Below are positions 35,631-57,661 of a stretch of 59,802 nt of DNA, one piece after another. This DNA is from Enterobacteria phage JenP2, in the sequence record NC_028997.1; one strand, written 5' to 3'. The notes under the pieces were generated by a model, which was given only the letters and a program-made list of their open reading frames with translations, ran no database searches and had not been told where the DNA came from. Each line of letters starts with the position of its first letter. Position 1 is the stretch's first letter. Both the position numbers and the translations under genes were made by a program.

Positions 35631-37634
35631 TCAAAATGGAATGTCGTCATCAAAATCTGGTGGTAGCTCTTTACCGTTACCAGTAAGAATATGTTGATTA
35701 GACGTAGAATGCAATACTGTCGTACGGGAATCAGTCTGTTCATCTTCATCAAACTTATTCGTATAACTGCCACCAAACTGGGACAGACCATTCATTGCTG
35801 CGATCTGTACAACCGGACGTTCGTTTGTTGCTTCTTTCTTACCGAATTCACTACCATCGTAACAACTATTCAACACTTCAGGGAATTTACCCTTTAAATT
35901 GACATAAATGTGCGTCGGTACACGAAGTTGGCTGACCACATTGAGGGCTTCGTCAATGTTAGCTGGGATTGCCAAGCTACAATGCTCACGCCACCAGTTA
36001 CGCGCTTTCTTACCTGCAAAGCCAGTATGGAACAGGCAGATGTATTGTTGAATAGTTTGTGATCCGCAAAGATAATCAACACGAAGTGTCGGTGGCTTAG
36101 AACGGTCACCCCTGTTCTCATGACGATAGTAACTCACCATATCAACTTTCAACACTTCAGTAACTGGTAAATCGTTCTTGATAATAGCTTTCGTACTTGC
36201 ACTCGCCATCAGTTTCTTCTCAAAAGTAAACTCATGACCGCAATAACCAGCACGACACGCTTTATTATTTGTAATTGTATAACCTAATCCTTGTAGATAG
36301 AGTATTTCTTCATGAGACATGCTGCTTGTGTCGAATGGTTTTAACCCACCACAGTAGCGAACTGACGCATGGTTCCATGTCTTACATACCGGGCATTCTT
36401 TGACAGGTGCAGCGGATTTTCCTTTCTGTCCTGGACGCTTAGGAATTACAGGGTCGTTAATAGGCCCAAGACGTCTCGTATTACCTGCGTAATCCAATAC
36501 AAGACAGTTCTGTTTGTGCGAAGCCGAGATAGCTTGCAAACGACCTTCCGTTGTGGTCAGATCAAAACCATCAGCATAATCAGGTCGAGTACCACGTCCA
36601 AGCATTTGAACCCATAGGCGGGAAGATTGAGACGGTCGCATACCAATTATTAAGTCAAGACCCGGATGGTCAAAACCTGTCGTTAATACGTTGTTGTTCG
36701 CTATTGCCTGCAAACGACCAGCTTTAAAGTCAATAAGGTACTGGTCACGCAAGGCTTTCGGTGTATCACCAGTTACAACTTCACAACTAATACCGCGCTC
36801 ATTGAGATAGTCTTTGACATCTTTTGCATGGTCTACACCAGCGCAAAAGATAAGCCAACTCATTCTATTCTCTTCTTCCGCAATACTAATTGCATCATCT
36901 AATAAATGGCGCGTTACATCAGGGTCATTTACAACCTTCTGAAGTTCACTTTCAATGAACTCACCGCCTCGAGTATGAACACCACTTACATCATACTCTT
37001 TCTTTGTTTTACGTGGTACTAACGGAACCAGATAACCTTCATCAATGAACCAGTTGAAGCACTCTACGGTACACGCGTTAAATACAATTTCATCAAATAG
37101 AGCGTTAGGTGCATAATCATCCTTGATAATAGAACCAAAACCAAGACGCCAACTTGTAGCAGTGAGACCGATAATCTTTAGATATGGATTCTTTTCACGA
37201 ATCTGCGCAAAGAACTTCTGATAACTTGTTTGCTGATTTGGACTAATAAGGTCACATTCGTCAACTATAATAATATCAACGTCCTCAAAGTATTTAGCTT
37301 GTTTTGCAACAGACTGAATACCTGCGAACGTTATCATTGCGTTCTTATCTTTGCGACCCATACCAGCACTATAAATACCAGTCGGTGCTTCAGGCCACAA
37401 CTTCTTGAATTTATCGTGGTTCTGGTCTATCAATTCTTTTACGTGAGTAATTACCATCATGCGGGTACTACCCCAGTTATCATGAATTGTCTTTAATAGA
37501 CCAGCAATTACAAGGGACTTACCAGTCCCTGTAGGCAACAAGATAACAGGATTTCCTGACTTTTCACCATGCTTGATGAAATAGCGCAATGTACTATTTA
37601 CAGCTTCTTGCTGATAATCACGTAGTTTGAACAT
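35631..37634 (-). CDS. SF2 DEAD/DEAH-box DNA helicase with C-terminal SSB-tip-like tail
   Basis: 667 aa; motifs LPTGTGKS (I), VDECD (II), LTAT (III), TTGFD (V), QMLGRGTR (VI); zinc-ribbon-like CPVCK...C; ends in DFDDDIPF. Confidence 0.8.
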   Translation of the reverse strand: MFKLRDYQQEAVNSTLRYFIKHGEKSGNPVILLPTGTGKSLVIAGLLKTIHDNWGSTRMMVITHVKELIDQNHDKFKKLWPEAPTGIYSAGMGRKDKNAMITFAGIQSVAKQAKYFEDVDIIIVDECDLISPNQQTSYQKFFAQIREKNPYLKIIGLTATSWRLGFGSIIKDDYAPNALFDEIVFNACTVECFNWFIDEGYLVPLVPRKTKKEYDVSGVHTRGGEFIESELQKVVNDPDVTRHLLDDAISIAEEENRMSWLIFCAGVDHAKDVKDYLNERGISCEVVTGDTPKALRDQYLIDFKAGRLQAIANNNVLTTGFDHPGLDLIIGMRPSQSSRLWVQMLGRGTRPDYADGFDLTTTEGRLQAISASHKQNCLVLDYAGNTRRLGPINDPVIPKRPGQKGKSAAPVKECPVCKTWNHASVRYCGGLKPFDTSSMSHEEILYLQGLGYTITNNKACRAGYCGHEFTFEKKLMASASTKAIIKNDLPVTEVLKVDMVSYYRHENRGDRSKPPTLRVDYLCGSQTIQQYICLFHTGFAGKKARNWWREHCSLAIPANIDEALNVVSQLRVPTHIYVNLKGKFPEVLNSCYDGSEFGKKEATNERPVVQIAAMNGLSQFGGSYTNKFDEDEQTDSRTTVLHSTSNQHILTGNGKELPPDFDDDIPF

Positions 37635-38585
37635 TTACTCACCGTAATAATCTGCTGCTTCGTATTGACCACATGCTGCCATCTGATCTTCCTTCGTTAA
37701 TACACCTTCAGTTCCATCGGTGATGTATGCAGTAGCGGAAGCTACTTTGATTGCACATCTCCAGGTTCCATCTTCAAGCGGATAAGAGTGCTTACAGGTG
37801 CGACAGTTAACTTCAGGCATCTTATTGTTGCGACATACCGCTTTGTGGTCACACCATTTGCATTTATAGTAAGACTTACTTTCATTAATCTTAGGTGGTG
37901 GGCATTCTGCCAGTGCAATTACAAATCCACGGTCTTTGTAGCGTTCTGCGGTTTCTTTATCAAACGGTACAAGCTCTGCCCAAATCTCGTCCGTGTTCTT
38001 ATTAACTGCAATATAAAGAGCGGCTGGGAGCCCATAGTACAACATGTATTCCTGCATCTGAACATAGTGCTCCCATTTGGATTCCATCACACCATTAACA
38101 ACAAGTTTCTTGAACGAATCATTATTGTGCGTTTTCATCTCCGTTAAGATTGGTGTAGAAGGTTGCGGCATGTCAGGACAACCAATGACAATACCATCTA
38201 TCGCGGAGCCAAAGTGCCCATTGAGATAGCTAACTCGATACTGGCTGCCATTTTCGTCTTGCTGGATGACTTGCATACCGGCGGTAAGTAATAAGGCCAC
38301 GAAGCGACCTTCTTCAAGATGCCCGCGATTGAATAGACGTAAGGTTTTACCGTTAAAGTGTGGTTTTGTTGCCCATCGCCACCCGTAGAAGATTGCTCTA
38401 CTACACTCTTGCCCGATAAGACTAATCCCAAGATGCGAACGGAATCCGCCATCTCCCTCTCTATATGCGTCTTCAATATGCGGTAATACTTTTCCGAGCC
38501 ATACTCTGTAAGCGGATCCTTGATCTCGTTCAATACAGTCATTGAATAACTCCATGGTCTTAGTAGCAGGATAAAAATGTGGCAT
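37635..38585 (-). CDS. PD-(D/E)xK exonuclease with C-terminal Cys cluster (RecB/Cas4-like)
   Basis: 316 aa; E-M-K and QxxxY-like motifs (ILTEMKT, VQMQEYMLY); C-terminal CKWCDHKAVC...CRTC cluster. Confidence 0.6.
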   Translation of the reverse strand: MPHFYPATKTMELFNDCIERDQGSAYRVWLGKVLPHIEDAYREGDGGFRSHLGISLIGQECSRAIFYGWRWATKPHFNGKTLRLFNRGHLEEGRFVALLLTAGMQVIQQDENGSQYRVSYLNGHFGSAIDGIVIGCPDMPQPSTPILTEMKTHNNDSFKKLVVNGVMESKWEHYVQMQEYMLYYGLPAALYIAVNKNTDEIWAELVPFDKETAERYKDRGFVIALAECPPPKINESKSYYKCKWCDHKAVCRNNKMPEVNCRTCKHSYPLEDGTWRCAIKVASATAYITDGTEGVLTKEDQMAACGQYEAADYYGE

Positions 38586-38647
38586 ATCATAATCCTATAT
38601 AGAAAAATAAAGCTCCCGGAGGAGCTTTATTATAACATGATTTTTAA

Positions 38648-39577
38648 TTACTGTGCAGCGTCATCGCCTTCAGTGGAACGTTTCCACGGTGGAGTCTTGG
38701 TCTGAGCTGCTTTAGCGATATCGTCCTGGACTTCAGGTTCTGCATGGTTAGCAGTACCAGTGTTCTGAGCTTGAGTTTGCGGTTGCTCTGCTCCAGGCTG
38801 TACCTGCTGAGTTGCCCAGTTAGGCTGTTGTGTGGTTTGTTGCTGCGGCTGCTGCGCACCAGTAGCCCACGGTTGAGATTGCGCCGCACTGTTAAAATCA
38901 ACTGTTCCAGACTGCTGCGGCTGCTGCCCAAATGCACCCGGGAAACCCTGCTGCTGTTGTTGCTGCGGTTGCTGGAACCCCTGAGTCTGAGGTTGTTGCT
39001 GCTGTTGCTGCGGCTGCTGCCCAAATGCACCCGGGAAACCCTGCTGCTGTTGTTGCTGCGGTTGCTGAGTACCACCGAACGCACCGCCACCAAATGCTGG
39101 AGACTGTGCTGCCGCTGCCGGAGTTGATTTAGGCAGGTTAGCCACATCCGCTTTAGTTGCGTATACAACGCCTTCCATATTATCAATTGCTTGATAAATC
39201 TGAGGTTCGTTGTTTGGCTCATAGCCAGGTTGCTGACGAACTTTTACTTTCAGGTTGAACGGAATACCGTGCAGTTGTTCGGTATCGTTCCAAACTGGAA
39301 CTTTAACAGCACGAGATAACTCTGCCAGTTCTTCCATTGCAATCTGTACAGCGACAGGGTTCGCGTTTTTGACGTTGTAACCGCCAAACATTACACGACC
39401 AGCAAAATCACCCTGCATAATCTTAAACTGAAGATTCAGACGCGCACCGCCTGGAGTTTTAGTCGGTTTGATCTCAGAGTTTACAATCTGAACAACATAC
39501 CAACCAGCGGGCATCAAACTATTGTGTTGACGCTCTGCGTGTTGTCCAGCGTTAAATTGCATTCCTAAACCGGCCAT
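38648..39577 (-). CDS. putative ssDNA-binding protein with Q/P/G-rich linker
   Basis: 309 aa; N-terminal ~150-aa globular domain then a Q/G/P low-complexity region resembling an SSB linker; no terminal DIPF. Confidence 0.5.
   Translation of the reverse strand: MAGLGMQFNAGQHAERQHNSLMPAGWYVVQIVNSEIKPTKTPGGARLNLQFKIMQGDFAGRVMFGGYNVKNANPVAVQIAMEELAELSRAVKVPVWNDTEQLHGIPFNLKVKVRQQPGYEPNNEPQIYQAIDNMEGVVYATKADVANLPKSTPAAAAQSPAFGGGAFGGTQQPQQQQQQGFPGAFGQQPQQQQQQPQTQGFQQPQQQQQQGFPGAFGQQPQQSGTVDFNSAAQSQPWATGAQQPQQQTTQQPNWATQQVQPGAEQPQTQAQNTGTANHAEPEVQDDIAKAAQTKTPPWKRSTEGDDAAQ
38923..39067. repeat. intragenic near-perfect direct duplication (~60 bp units, 84-bp period)
   Basis: The unit GCTGCGGCTGCTGCCCAAATGCACCCGGGAAACCCTGCTGCTGTTGTTGCTGCGGTTGCTG occurs twice, encoding the repeated peptide QQPQQQQQQGFPGAFGQQPQQ. 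Confidence 0.6.
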
Positions 39578-40323
39578 TATTGTACCCCTTTGATTTTGTT
39601 AATGATTGCACCGAGATGTGGATATTCCATCTGTTCTAACGAACCAGAACGATCTTTACATACATTTGACAGATCTGGTCTGGTCAGCAGATAACGAAAA
39701 TCTGCTTGAGTATTTTGGTCTTTACCAACACTAATTTTGAAAACTTCATCAAAAAAGTATGGTAATTCTGGACCTAATTTTGCACCAGGCATAGAAGGGC
39801 CATAAGACGTAATACCTGTCAACTCGTCCTTATTACGGGACATTTTAGCTGCCATGTATACGTTAAGTCCAGGGATATCTCGAAAAGCACGAACCAAAGT
39901 TTGCATCTTCTCAATGAGATCCCCATAAGCCTGACGCGGATCTTTCACAGTACGCTTCGCATTGTTAAGGCACTTTTCAGCAATCTCAGTAAGTGAATCC
40001 AGCGCAAGAGACTGAAAGCGCGGTAAACCATCTTCACCTACAGGATTGTTTGCAGGGTTAGTTGCCCAAACATAAGCCTGCTCCACATCCTGAATATTTT
40101 CAACCGTAATGGTTGGAATATCGTAACAGATATCTGGTCTGTTTTCACCAAACACACGAGCAATGTTATTCGGTGTTAAAGACAGAAGCCCAGACTCTGC
40201 AGAAATCAGCAACGGTCTTGGAAGAGTTGCTGTAAGCATGGTCTTACCCATACCGGATTCACCATACACAAGCATCTTGACACCAGTGTCCAGAACTGCC
40301 TGCGCGGTAGTTGTAAATTGCAT
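39577..40323 (-). CDS. RecA-fold ATPase (Sak4-like recombination protein)
   Basis: 248 aa; Walker A GESGMGKT; adjacent to the SSB-like and exonuclease genes. Confidence 0.55.
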   Translation of the reverse strand: MQFTTTAQAVLDTGVKMLVYGESGMGKTMLTATLPRPLLISAESGLLSLTPNNIARVFGENRPDICYDIPTITVENIQDVEQAYVWATNPANNPVGEDGLPRFQSLALDSLTEIAEKCLNNAKRTVKDPRQAYGDLIEKMQTLVRAFRDIPGLNVYMAAKMSRNKDELTGITSYGPSMPGAKLGPELPYFFDEVFKISVGKDQNTQADFRYLLTRPDLSNVCKDRSGSLEQMEYPHLGAIINKIKGVQ

Positions 40324-41909: not shown

Positions 41910-42335
41910 TTAACCCTTCTTAACAGCGATCTTAACCTGTGGCGAACCCGGAGTTGTGGTCACACATTCGTCAAAGATCGCCAACTGTTCAGCTGTGAGC
42001 TTACGATATGCAGCCACACGGAGTTCTACTTTAGTTTCAGTAACTTCGTTGACATCCACACCAGCTTCAATAAGGTCTGGCAGAATCTGACTAAAGATCG
42101 CCTTATCAACTTTACGCGTATAAGGTTGAGTAACAACAAGATCATCACCTGTATCAAGTTTAATCTTGTTAGTATTTTCGTTAAGACCATCTGGAAAGAA
42201 GACGCTAACCACACTTTGGCGCAGTGCGCGTTCTTGCGCTTGTACTTTGGCTAATTCTTCTTTCTTAGAATACCAGTTGTAAAGGAGTTCGTACTTCTGT
42301 TCTTCAGTTAAGTTCATTTCTGGTAACTGGACCAT
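41910..42335 (-). CDS. hypothetical protein
   Basis: 141-aa ORF with a GAGGG SD; first gene downstream of the candidate promoter at 42367-42395. Confidence 0.5.
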   Translation of the reverse strand: MVQLPEMNLTEEQKYELLYNWYSKKEELAKVQAQERALRQSVVSVFFPDGLNENTNKIKLDTGDDLVVTQPYTRKVDKAIFSQILPDLIEAGVDVNEVTETKVELRVAAYRKLTAEQLAIFDECVTTTPGSPQVKIAVKKG

Positions 42336-56816: not shown

Positions 56817-57170
56817 ATGAGCTTGCAACGTTTTGACAATGCAGAACTCGCGTGTGAATTTGCAAAGCGCAAGTTCGCTAAAACAGGTACGCCGCGATGC
56901 GTGCACGCGGCTATTGGGCAAAATGGGGCAAAGTATTGGTACGTTGGTACAGTAGCTCAGATCAAGCGAAGATTCGCGACTACGCTCGAAATGCGCCGGC
57001 TTGGGTCCCCTACACTTGTACGAAACAGGCACTTGGATAAAGAGGAAATTTATCAATTTCTCAGAAATTACACTGGTAAAGAGAATAGATTTCAGGTTGC
57101 AGCGAAAGAGTTTAATATTGGTCTTTCCACTGCTTATAAAATTTATCACATATATGGGCGTTTAATATGA
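56817..57170 (+). CDS. putative DNA-binding protein (C-terminal HTH)
   Basis: 117 aa; C-terminal FQVAAKEFNIGLSTAYKIY resembles a helix-turn-helix. Confidence 0.45.
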   Translation: MSLQRFDNAELACEFAKRKFAKTGTPRCVHAAIGQNGAKYWYVGTVAQIKRRFATTLEMRRLGSPTLVRNRHLDKEEIYQFLRNYTGKENRFQVAAKEFNIGLSTAYKIYHIYGRLI

Positions 57171-57661
57171 CCGCAATTGCTTATCGTAATGGGATATTAG
57201 CTGTAGATCGACAGGTTACATGGGGTAATATTGCAACGACTACGAATAAAGTTCATACTATCAGTATTCCAGGGATTGGTCTGTGTCTTGTTGCCATGTC
57301 TGGTAAACTACGTGCTGTAGATGACATTGTAGAACATTTACAAACTACGTCACGTGGACGCAAAGAACCTTTCTCAGATTTAAATCCAGATTCGCGTTAT
57401 GGTATTGCTGTGACGCAGGAACTTGTCGTGTACCCCATCTATGGTGATGGTAAATTAGGTCTACCGGACACTAACGAATTTATTGCGGAGGGTAGTGCGT
57501 TTGAGTTCTTGATGGGTACAATGGCGGCAGGTTGCAGTGCGGAAGATGCTGTGCAATTGGCGTGTGTATATTGCGATAGCTGTGGTCAGGGTGTCAACTT
57601 CTATGACGTAGCTTATACTCTGAAAATGGCGCAGTGTAAACCCGAGGAGGAACCATTTTGA
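57167..57661 (+). CDS. HslV/proteasome-beta-like Ntn hydrolase
   Basis: 164 aa; N-terminus MTAIAYRNGILAVDRQVTWGN parallels the recalled E. coli HslV [24 protein letters not shown], with Thr at position 2; Lys about 28. Confidence 0.5.
   Translation: MTAIAYRNGILAVDRQVTWGNIATTTNKVHTISIPGIGLCLVAMSGKLRAVDDIVEHLQTTSRGRKEPFSDLNPDSRYGIAVTQELVVYPIYGDGKLGLPDTNEFIAEGSAFEFLMGTMAAGCSAEDAVQLACVYCDSCGQGVNFYDVAYTLKMAQCKPEEEPF

Follow-up and report, generated by a model that had tools for sequence, protein, structure and literature searches.

In phage HK620, Sak4 (HkaL) is an ATP-dependent annealase that is stimulated by the adjacent DUF669-type single-stranded DNA (ssDNA) binding protein (SSB; HkaK) (PMC5928155). 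The HK620 protein is a genuine SSB, which stimulates Sak4-mediated annealing and recombineering via its C-terminal hexapeptide, NDYPPF (Hutinet et al. 2018, PMC5928155), and ~80% of sak4 genes adjoin an ssb gene (PMC5928155). Here, we analyzed a block of four genes on the minus strand of the genome of Enterobacteria phage JenP2 (NC_028997.1), which encode a Sak4-like ATPase, a DUF669-family SSB, a Cas4-like exonuclease, and a RadD-like helicase. The window, that is, the whole stretch of 59,802 nucleotides (nt) that was analyzed, is the complete genome of JenP2 (Nonagvirus, Queuovirinae). We consider it likely that the four genes form the recombination/repair cassette of this phage, as a densely packed run of early genes in one orientation.

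Similarly to HK620, JenP2 carries an adjacent and co-oriented sak4-ssb pair, in which the ATPase is a core-only RecA-fold protein of the AAA_24/phrog_124 type, and the noncanonical SSB of the DUF669/N4 type has a Pro-Pro-aromatic motif at or near its C terminus (NDYPPF in HK620 versus TPPW in JenP2). The two pairs also show differences. The SSB of HK620 has 195 amino acids, while that of JenP2 has 309 and contains a disordered region of about 170 amino acids. The motif is a terminal PPF in HK620 but a PPW followed by 11 residues in JenP2. Last, the HK620 pair is accompanied by abc2 (RecBCD hijack), whereas JenP2 encodes a Cas4-like nuclease of its own and a RadD-like helicase alongside the pair. 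The JenP2 layout is also similar to lambda Red (Exo/Beta) and RecET, where a PD-(D/E)xK 5'-3' exonuclease fold is encoded beside the gene of a single-strand annealing protein. In contrast to these systems, the annealase of JenP2 has a RecA fold (Sak4) rather than a Rad52-like one, the nuclease contains cysteines of the Cas4 Fe-S type together with a predicted second Cys4 domain, and the SSB and helicase are integral to the unit.

The region spanning 37635-40323, which contains the sak4, ssb, and nuclease genes, shows 95-96.5% DNA identity to 9g, JenK1, JenP1, SE1, the BASEL phages ChristophMerian and FritzHoffmann, and further Nonagvirus. The RefSeq records of JenP2, 9g, JenK1, JenP1, and SE1 name the products Sak4-like ssDNA annealing protein, single strand DNA binding protein, and Cas4-domain exonuclease; thus, our interpretation of the genes coincides with the public annotation. 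The module is therefore already annotated and belongs to a characterized kind, the pairing of Sak4 with a DUF669-type SSB. The only part that seems to be unreported is the combination of a helicase carrying an SSB tip with an SSB carrying PPW.

The four-gene block

The genes of the block, together with the elements that fall within or between them, are as follows.

39577 to 40323, minus strand: Sak4-like core-only RecA-fold ATPase, 248 amino acids (Pfam AAA_24, phrog_124)
38648 to 39577, minus strand: DUF669-family SSB, 309 amino acids, with an OB domain, a disordered Q/A/P/G linker, and a conserved C-terminal peptide (PF05037, phrog_6015, YP_009216981.1)
39173 to 39577, minus strand: OB-fold domain of the SSB, about residues 1-135
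38606 to 38631, minus strand: terminator-like hairpin with an 11-bp stem and a T-run, AATAAAGCTCC-TCCG-GGAGCTTTATT; a terminator is annotated at the same spot in HdSG1 and SP8
37635 to 38585, minus strand: Cas4-like PD-(D/E)xK exonuclease, 316 amino acids (phrog_1990, invariant motifs, Foldseek)
35631 to 37634, minus strand: RadD-like superfamily 2 (SF2) helicase, 667 amino acids, fourth gene of the block (RadD similarity, synteny in 80 loci)

We gathered 80 IMG/VR loci via an alignment of the nuclease (46-99% identity) and found the order sak4-ssb-nuclease-helicase on one strand in 38 of them. Another 25 contained ssb-nuclease-helicase, and the remaining loci were mostly truncated. The order was also kept where only three or two of the four genes were detected, and a Sak4 hidden Markov model (HMM) placed the ATPase upstream in 55 of the 63 loci with at least 750 nt of upstream sequence. 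Thus, the unit is a conserved four-gene block. A sequence-only reading of this DNA had described a module of three consecutive minus-strand genes; the content and order of these three hold, but the helicase has to be counted as the fourth member.

The stop codon of sak4 overlaps the start of ssb (TAATG), and the nuclease stop abuts the start of the helicase gene. The ssb-nuclease spacer is 62 nt long and contains the hairpin, which probably lets sak4 and ssb be expressed above the nuclease and the helicase. A promoter-like TGCACA-17-TATAAT match (38657-38629) overlaps this hairpin. The number of sigma-70-like promoter matches in the region was not above expectation (14 versus 15.6 expected from shuffles), and thus, we make no promoter claims.

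The ATPase matched Pfam AAA_24 (PF13479) with 82 bits (cut-off 27; 6.8e-23) across profile positions 2-195 of 195, and phrog_124 ("Sak4-like ssDNA annealing protein") at 1.4e-54. HK620 Sak4 shares both assignments. The Walker A motif corresponds to G21-T28 (GESGMGKT), and the residues conserved in at least 90% of 39 syntenic homologues (43-100% identity) were G24, G26, K27, T28, E43, and D109, the last two of which may have catalytic roles. The protein thus has the Walker A, the conserved Glu, and the Walker-B-type Asp of a core-only RecA fold and no extra DNA-binding domain. Its earlier description as a RecA-fold Walker A ATPase can be narrowed to the AAA_24/Sak4 family. By analogy with HK620, JenP2 Sak4 would catalyze ATP-dependent annealing and be boosted by its cognate SSB.

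The SSB matched Pfam DUF669 (PF05037) with 35.1 bits (cut-off 21) and phrog_6015 ("single strand DNA binding protein") at 3.4e-98. DUF669 is a large family, with 5547 cluster representatives at E<=0.001 in an exhaustive HMMER scan and lengths of 117-336 amino acids among the best 150. It has been linked to the characterized N4 SSB, and a diverged OB fold has been predicted for it (Kazlauskas et al., PMC4889955). Searches of the JenP2 SSB against PDB chains, with both the single sequence and the profile, gave nothing meaningful, the nuclease profile found no match among PDB sequences, and the ankyrin matches that appeared in these SSB and nuclease searches were spurious. Because the sequence searches were empty, tests at the level of the fold were needed. 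For the N-terminal domain of the SSB, a high-confidence model was obtained, a b1-b2-b3-alpha-b4-b5 OB barrel that matches SSB-type OB folds; it thus passes the OB-fold check proposed in the sequence-only reading. PrgE was the closest structure, and RPA70, Teb1, baculovirus LEF-3, Rim1, PriB, and Pf3 SSB were among the further ones; in BFVD, the OB fold is common in phage DUF669 proteins. On the basis of the model, the SSB would coat ssDNA through this domain.

PrgE (pCF10, PDB 8s4s) binds both ssDNA and dsDNA as a filament (PMC11137577). It shares 11% identity with the JenP2 SSB with no profile-level sequence link, and unlike the phage protein, it has 144 amino acids and lacks a long linker or PPW tail. 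The JenP2 SSB resembles E. coli SSB in its general plan, which consists of an OB domain, a Q/P/G-rich low-complexity linker, and a conserved terminal peptide. The two differ in that the phage protein has no PF00436 match, contains another OB variant (closest to PrgE), and carries a PPW-type tip, while DFDDDIPF is found on the JenP2 helicase. With no Pfam match and a C terminus reading ...PPWKRSTEGDDAAQ, it is not a canonical bacterial SSB (PF00436). Membership in the T7 gp2.5/Enc34 SSB group (DUF2815, PF10991) was also rejected, as neither a Pfam match nor a gp2.5-like best fold was found. Because none of the 60 best structural matches of the SSB domain was a gp2.5 or Enc34 structure, the fold is not gp2.5-like, and the earlier suggestion of such a fold had to be dropped.

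The nuclease matched phrog_1990 ("Cas4-domain exonuclease") at 2.3e-113. Across 30 homologues (50-81% identity), the PD-(D/E)xK residues D130, E149, and K151 and the QhxxY residues Q176 and Y180 were invariant. So were C61, C242, C245, and C251, which form a C-Xn-CxxC-x5-C motif of the Cas4/AddB/Exo5 type and are predicted to hold an Fe-S cluster, and a second Cys4 set located C-terminal to it (C261, C264, C277, and C305; NCRTC...W-C...Q-x3-C). The latter may correspond to a zinc ribbon or to a second cluster. For the region that contains it (37635-37805, minus strand; residues 261-316), the 9g record notes a Trm112p-like domain. Thus, the PD-(D/E)xK exonuclease with Cas4-type cysteines that had been read from the sequence was recovered, with the correction that there are two invariant 4-Cys sets, not one.

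The AlphaFold2 (AF2) model of the nuclease (predicted local distance difference test score, pLDDT, 86) had Cas4 SSO0001 (4ic1) as its best Foldseek match (E 2e-5, probability 1.0, template modeling (TM) score 0.35-0.53), followed by the Argonaute-associated Cas4-family ACE1, lambda exonuclease, LHK-Exo, MGME1, Exo5, and RecE. A precomputed PF12705 match was present in a single homologue (P0069). A nuclease with the fold and motifs of Cas4-family proteins, ACE1 included, might instead serve counter-defense, CRISPR manipulation, or host DNA degradation, and interference with spacer acquisition has been proposed for Cas4-like proteins of other phages. However, the gene keeps its position between ssb and the RadD-like helicase gene in the 80 loci, there is no CRISPR-cas context, it is translationally abutted to the helicase gene, and the recombination exonucleases lambda exonuclease, RecE, and LHK-Exo match the fold equally well. 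We therefore consider such a role highly unlikely and, relying on the modeled fold, assign the protein as a Cas4-like recombination-type exonuclease, not a CRISPR Cas4.

The helicase shares 37% identity with E. coli RadD over 431 amino acids (E 2e-73) across the motor and the zinc region. It matched the NCBIfam RadD model (NF053632) with 293 bits, below the equivalog cut-off of 720, over profile positions 1-389 of 573, and its C-terminal 250 amino acids are unrelated to RadD in sequence. It is thus, as judged from sequence, a RadD-like homologue and not an equivalog. E. coli RadD speeds up strand exchange by RecA (PMC8887467), and the helicase orthologue of a Seuratvirus (Queuovirinae) triggers Retron-Eco11, as do T4 UvsW and T5 D10 (PMC12746101).

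The block is surrounded by genes for a ligase, RNase H, dUTPase, primase, and a RusA-type resolvase. The same operon contains a gene for a DUF7173 protein (41910-42335, minus strand; Pfam 2e-37), which is flanked by the genes for dUTPase and RNase H and is called "putative DNA binding protein" in 9g.

The C-terminal motif of the SSB and the proposed pathway

Beyond the OB core, the JenP2 SSB has a tail of 173 amino acids composed of Q (29%), A (14.5%), P (10%), and G (10%), which agrees with the Q/P/G-rich linker that had been noted for an SSB-like protein. The tail ends in ...PPWKRSTEGDDAAQ, without DIPF. The absence of an acidic DIPF tip had been recognized before; however, the protein is not tip-less and has instead a conserved PPW near its C terminus, within the following element.

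38651 to 38737, minus strand: conserved C-terminal SSB peptide PEVQDDIAKAAQTKTPPWKRSTEGDDAAQ, (nearly) identical in 13 Nonagvirus alleles; PPW corresponds to residues 296-298 (38684-38692)

The peptide (D/E)(D/E)IA(K/Q)AAQ...PPWKR is kept in closer relatives (64-71% full-length identity). PPW was found within the last 22-23 residues in 100 of 159 family representatives and in 63 of the 66 SSBs from syntenic loci, none of which has an aromatic residue at the very C terminus; PW within the last ~22 residues was present in 129 of the 159 representatives. The SSB contains acidic stretches, the patch EPEVQDDI and the end EGDDAAQ (compare the acidic tail of Kazlauskas 2016), and its conserved element is PPW followed by K/R-containing residues. 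An ancestral protein ending in DDIPF, as might be read from the internal QDDIAKAAQ, was rejected, since the closer relatives carry DDIA(K/Q)AAQ...PPWKR in this very form.

JenP2 has three Trp motifs in the tail, QPW (residues 235-237), PNW (252-254), and PPW. In the DUF669 subfamily (loci L013-L092), the tails consist of about 72% A/Q/P and contain 2-7 Trp, 73% of which are preceded by Pro (xPW[AQ] motifs). This composition suggests that the Pro-Trp motifs act as multivalent short linear motifs. By analogy with HK620, PPW may be the Sak4-recruiting motif and the counterpart of the PPF tip.

In the pathway that we propose, the nuclease would resect double-strand ends to 3' single strands, which the SSB would cover via its N-terminal OB domain. 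The conserved PPW peptide at the end of the long disordered linker would then recruit Sak4, which would anneal complementary strands in an ATP-dependent manner. Last, the RadD/UvsW-like helicase would remodel the branched products, which would feed recombination-dependent replication and the formation of concatemers. Recombination-dependent replication and repair would be completed by the ligase, RNase H, and RusA-type resolvase encoded nearby.

Several observations weigh against a recombination cassette of this kind. Comparison of HK620 SSB and Sak4 with the JenP2 proteins by BLASTP and hhalign revealed no significant similarity, leaving a link at the level of the family only; similarity between HK620 Sak4 and the JenP2 ATPase was not detectable in the pairwise comparison, and HK620 SSB does not reach PF05037 in hmmscan. 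Because these pairwise searches were empty, the analogy with HK620 rests on the family and on the remote homology reported by others. The PPW of the JenP2 SSB is not terminal, and because 11 residues follow it, its equivalence to the terminal PPF tip is an assumption. The nuclease had no match in Pfam (including Cas_Cas4/PDDEXK_1, at E<=10) or in NCBIfam, and its TM-scores to Cas4 are modest. The gene identities, folds, motifs, synteny, and polymorphism are established here; for the Nonagvirus proteins, we infer the biochemical activities and partner contacts of all four. Moreover, the SSB is probably also the replicative SSB of the phage, and "recombination module" may be too narrow a label.

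The last point leads to a different reading, in which the block is chiefly replication-fork machinery, with the DUF669 protein as the sole replicative SSB, the ATPase as a fork accessory or loader, and the nuclease in primer or flap processing. DUF669 proteins have been treated as replicative SSBs of viruses without other SSBs (Kazlauskas et al., PMC4889955), no second SSB family match was found among the ORFs (open reading frames) examined, and the ligase, RNase H, dUTPase, primase, and resolvase genes surround the block. However, the sole biochemistry on a Sak4/DUF669-type pair concerns annealing and recombineering, not loading (PMC5928155), the RadD/UvsW-like fourth gene points to branch processing, and a Cas4/lambda-exonuclease-type nuclease beside an annealase is the classic layout of a two-component recombinase. 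We thus regard a chiefly replicative role as rather unlikely and keep the recombination/repair cassette as the favored interpretation. Because the replication of such phages is often recombination dependent, the two readings are not mutually exclusive.

Turnover of the glutamine-rich linker

The linker of the JenP2 SSB contains two 62-nt copies that are 100% identical.

39006 to 39067, minus strand: repeat copy 1, upstream in the gene, encoding QQPQQQQQQGFPGAFGQQPQQ; exact 62-nt copy, putative donor, with the same allele at this position in the relative P0291
38913 to 38974, minus strand: repeat copy 2, downstream in the gene; putative gene-conversion recipient, which replaces the ...QQPQQPVQQQ... 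of all other alleles

The start-to-start spacing is 93 nt, which equals 31 codons and is in frame, and the copies together with the spacer span 155 nt. The sequence-only reading had described a near-perfect direct duplication of a ~60-bp unit; the unit is real, while the period is 93 nt, not 84, and the start lies at 38913, not at 38923. A period-48 row reported by Tandem Repeats Finder (TRF) is a composite of the degenerate CAG/CAA background. In 12 orthologous genes from related isolates, the longest exact internal duplicate was 0-19 nt, and the 62-nt repeat of JenP2 is far beyond chance for its composition.

We aligned the ssb orthologues of these 12 isolates at both the protein and the DNA level and added 14 alleles from the 90% cluster. 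The length of the protein varied between 301 and 315 amino acids in the 12 isolates (309 in JenP2), and all of the length variation and most substitutions fell in the Q-rich linker. Variable columns numbered 40 of 60 in the linker's most variable 60-column block but 3-6 in each block of the OB domain, which, like the last ~60 residues, was nearly invariant.

The alleles other than JenP2 read ...QQGFPGAFGQQP-QQQQQQPQTQGF-QQPQQQQQPQQPVQQQ..., while that of JenP2 reads ...QQGFPGAFGQQPQQ-QQQQPQTQGF-QQPQQQQQQGFPGAFGQQPQQ.... The exact duplicate was unique to JenP2 among about 29 alleles. All 14 extra alleles carried a single GFPGAFG, and one of them, P0291, shares the copy 1 sequence of JenP2; thus, copy 1 is the putative donor. 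Because the first unit appears to have overwritten the second unit of an old 31-codon repeat and the length barely changed, the event is better explained by intragenic gene conversion or template switching than by a copy-number gain. As judged from the alleles, the exact duplicate looks like a recent in-frame intragenic gene conversion, in which copy 1 would have been written over the second, degenerate unit of an older repeat with a 93-nt period, located in the low-complexity linker.

Natural in-frame deletions of the linker, located between the same QQPQQQ direct repeats, were found in two metagenomic relatives with near-complete Nonagvirus-like genomes. One (P0003; 57,953-bp contig) encodes an SSB of 275 amino acids that has lost about one 31-32-codon period, and the other (P0002; 59,537-bp contig) encodes an SSB of 266 amino acids; both lack GFPGAFG. 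Thus, the length of the linker is polymorphic, as had been predicted, with SSBs of 266-315 amino acids among the relatives. The repeat itself is a homogenization confined to JenP2 and does not represent a simple gain in copy number. In this scheme, the same direct repeats would yield the natural deletion alleles, and the linker length would drift next to an unchanged OB domain and C-terminal peptide. The 62-nt duplicate thus reflects ordinary turnover of a low-complexity linker.

An allele that was seen on one contig only and in none of about 28 others could also be explained by an artefact of assembly or sequencing in the JenP2 record, and an exact search for its diagnostic junction found no match in IMG/VR or JGI metagenome contigs. 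Such an artefact is very improbable, because the array of 155 nt, which fits within one short read, is in frame and has both flanks colinear with the relatives. Furthermore, 309 amino acids fall in the natural range of 301-315, and the same repeats recombine in nature, as seen in the deletion alleles on the 58-59.5 kb contigs.

The duplication might also be adaptive, with a doubled aromatic GFPGAFG "sticker" that tunes the cooperativity of the SSB or the formation of condensates. The converted segment brings two more Phe into the Q-rich disordered linker, the tails of the family consist of A/Q/P spacers among which aromatic PW motifs recur (2-7 per tail), and the linker of E. coli SSB is reported to influence cooperativity and phase separation. 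However, the duplication is present in just 1 of about 29 alleles, near-complete genomes with zero GFPGAFG copies are viable, and no other part of the gene varies as much as the linker, which is a signature of weak constraint. Thus, we consider an adaptive duplication unlikely and favor routine linker turnover by gene conversion. The natural series of 0, 1, or 2 GFPGAFG units in otherwise near-identical proteins of 266-315 amino acids could be used to probe disordered SSB linkers.

The CAG/CAA tract is also covered by alternative-frame ORFs, located at 38644-39222 on the minus strand and at 38744-39127 and 38932-39132 on the plus strand, with Ser/Arg/Asn-, Leu-, or Ala-rich products. These were dismissed as genes and regarded as low-complexity by-products, because the conserved frame in all relatives is the SSB frame.

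The SSB-type tip of the helicase

The helicase of JenP2 ends in the following motif.

35634 to 35657, minus strand: C terminus of the helicase, DFDDDIPF, which exactly matches the final 8 residues of E. coli SSB (SSB-Ct as in PMC10238739)

This end is common to the helicases of JenP2 and 9g and bears out the earlier remark that the nearby helicase carries a DIPF tip. Among complete helicases from the syntenic loci, 55 of 72 have a C-terminal PF, which in nearly all cases follows an acidic run (DDD[IVL]PF). A strict [DE][IVL]PF end was found in none of the 1533 other complete ORFs of at least 100 amino acids in the same loci. In the JenP2 window, the only other ORF with an acidic Pro-Phe C terminus encodes a 164-amino acid protein (57167-57661, plus strand; phrog_1040, "peptidase HslV family"), which ends in ...KPEEEPF.

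The T7 gp4 helicase-primase and gp2.5 have acidic C-terminal tails ending in Phe, which serve in protein docking and bind the phage polymerase. In T7, the tails are thus present on both the SSB and the helicase, whereas in JenP2, the tail is found on the helicase only and has the sequence of the host SSB. JenP2 also differs from E. coli, where RadD binds the SSB tip, in that the phage helicase carries the tip itself. RadD is stimulated by the SSB C-terminal tip, which docks in a pocket of motor domain 1 (PMC8887467, PMC10238739). On the phage helicase, the six hydrophobic positions of this pocket are kept (T15, L16, F19, L46, I121, and I155). Of the three pocket arginines, only one is kept conservatively (K153), while R21 aligns with I20, and R49, which falls in an insertion, with S56. 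We found no publication on a phage helicase with an SSB-tip mimic.

We tentatively propose that the two jobs of a bacterial SSB are split between two proteins in this phage lineage, with the DUF669 SSB coating ssDNA and offering its PPW motifs (several in each tail, the last of them conserved) to phage partners such as Sak4, and the helicase bearing the host SSB tip. The tip could tether host SSB-interacting proteins (Pol III chi, PriA, RecO, RecQ, ExoI, and RNase HI) to phage DNA that is freed of host SSB. Alternatively, the RadD-type SSB-Ct pocket of the helicase itself could take up the tip, either in cis or from another protomer, which would make activation independent of host SSB.

Together, these data mainly confirm the existing annotation of a well-sampled phage genus, and their value lies in the linker series and in the arrangement of the tips. 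Because the same genes occur in Bas19 and Bas20, which are culturable BASEL phages, the tip arrangement is directly testable. If functional, the combination of a PPW-tip SSB with a helicase bearing the host SSB tip would be a new viral way to plug into, or to bypass, the interaction hub of the host SSB.

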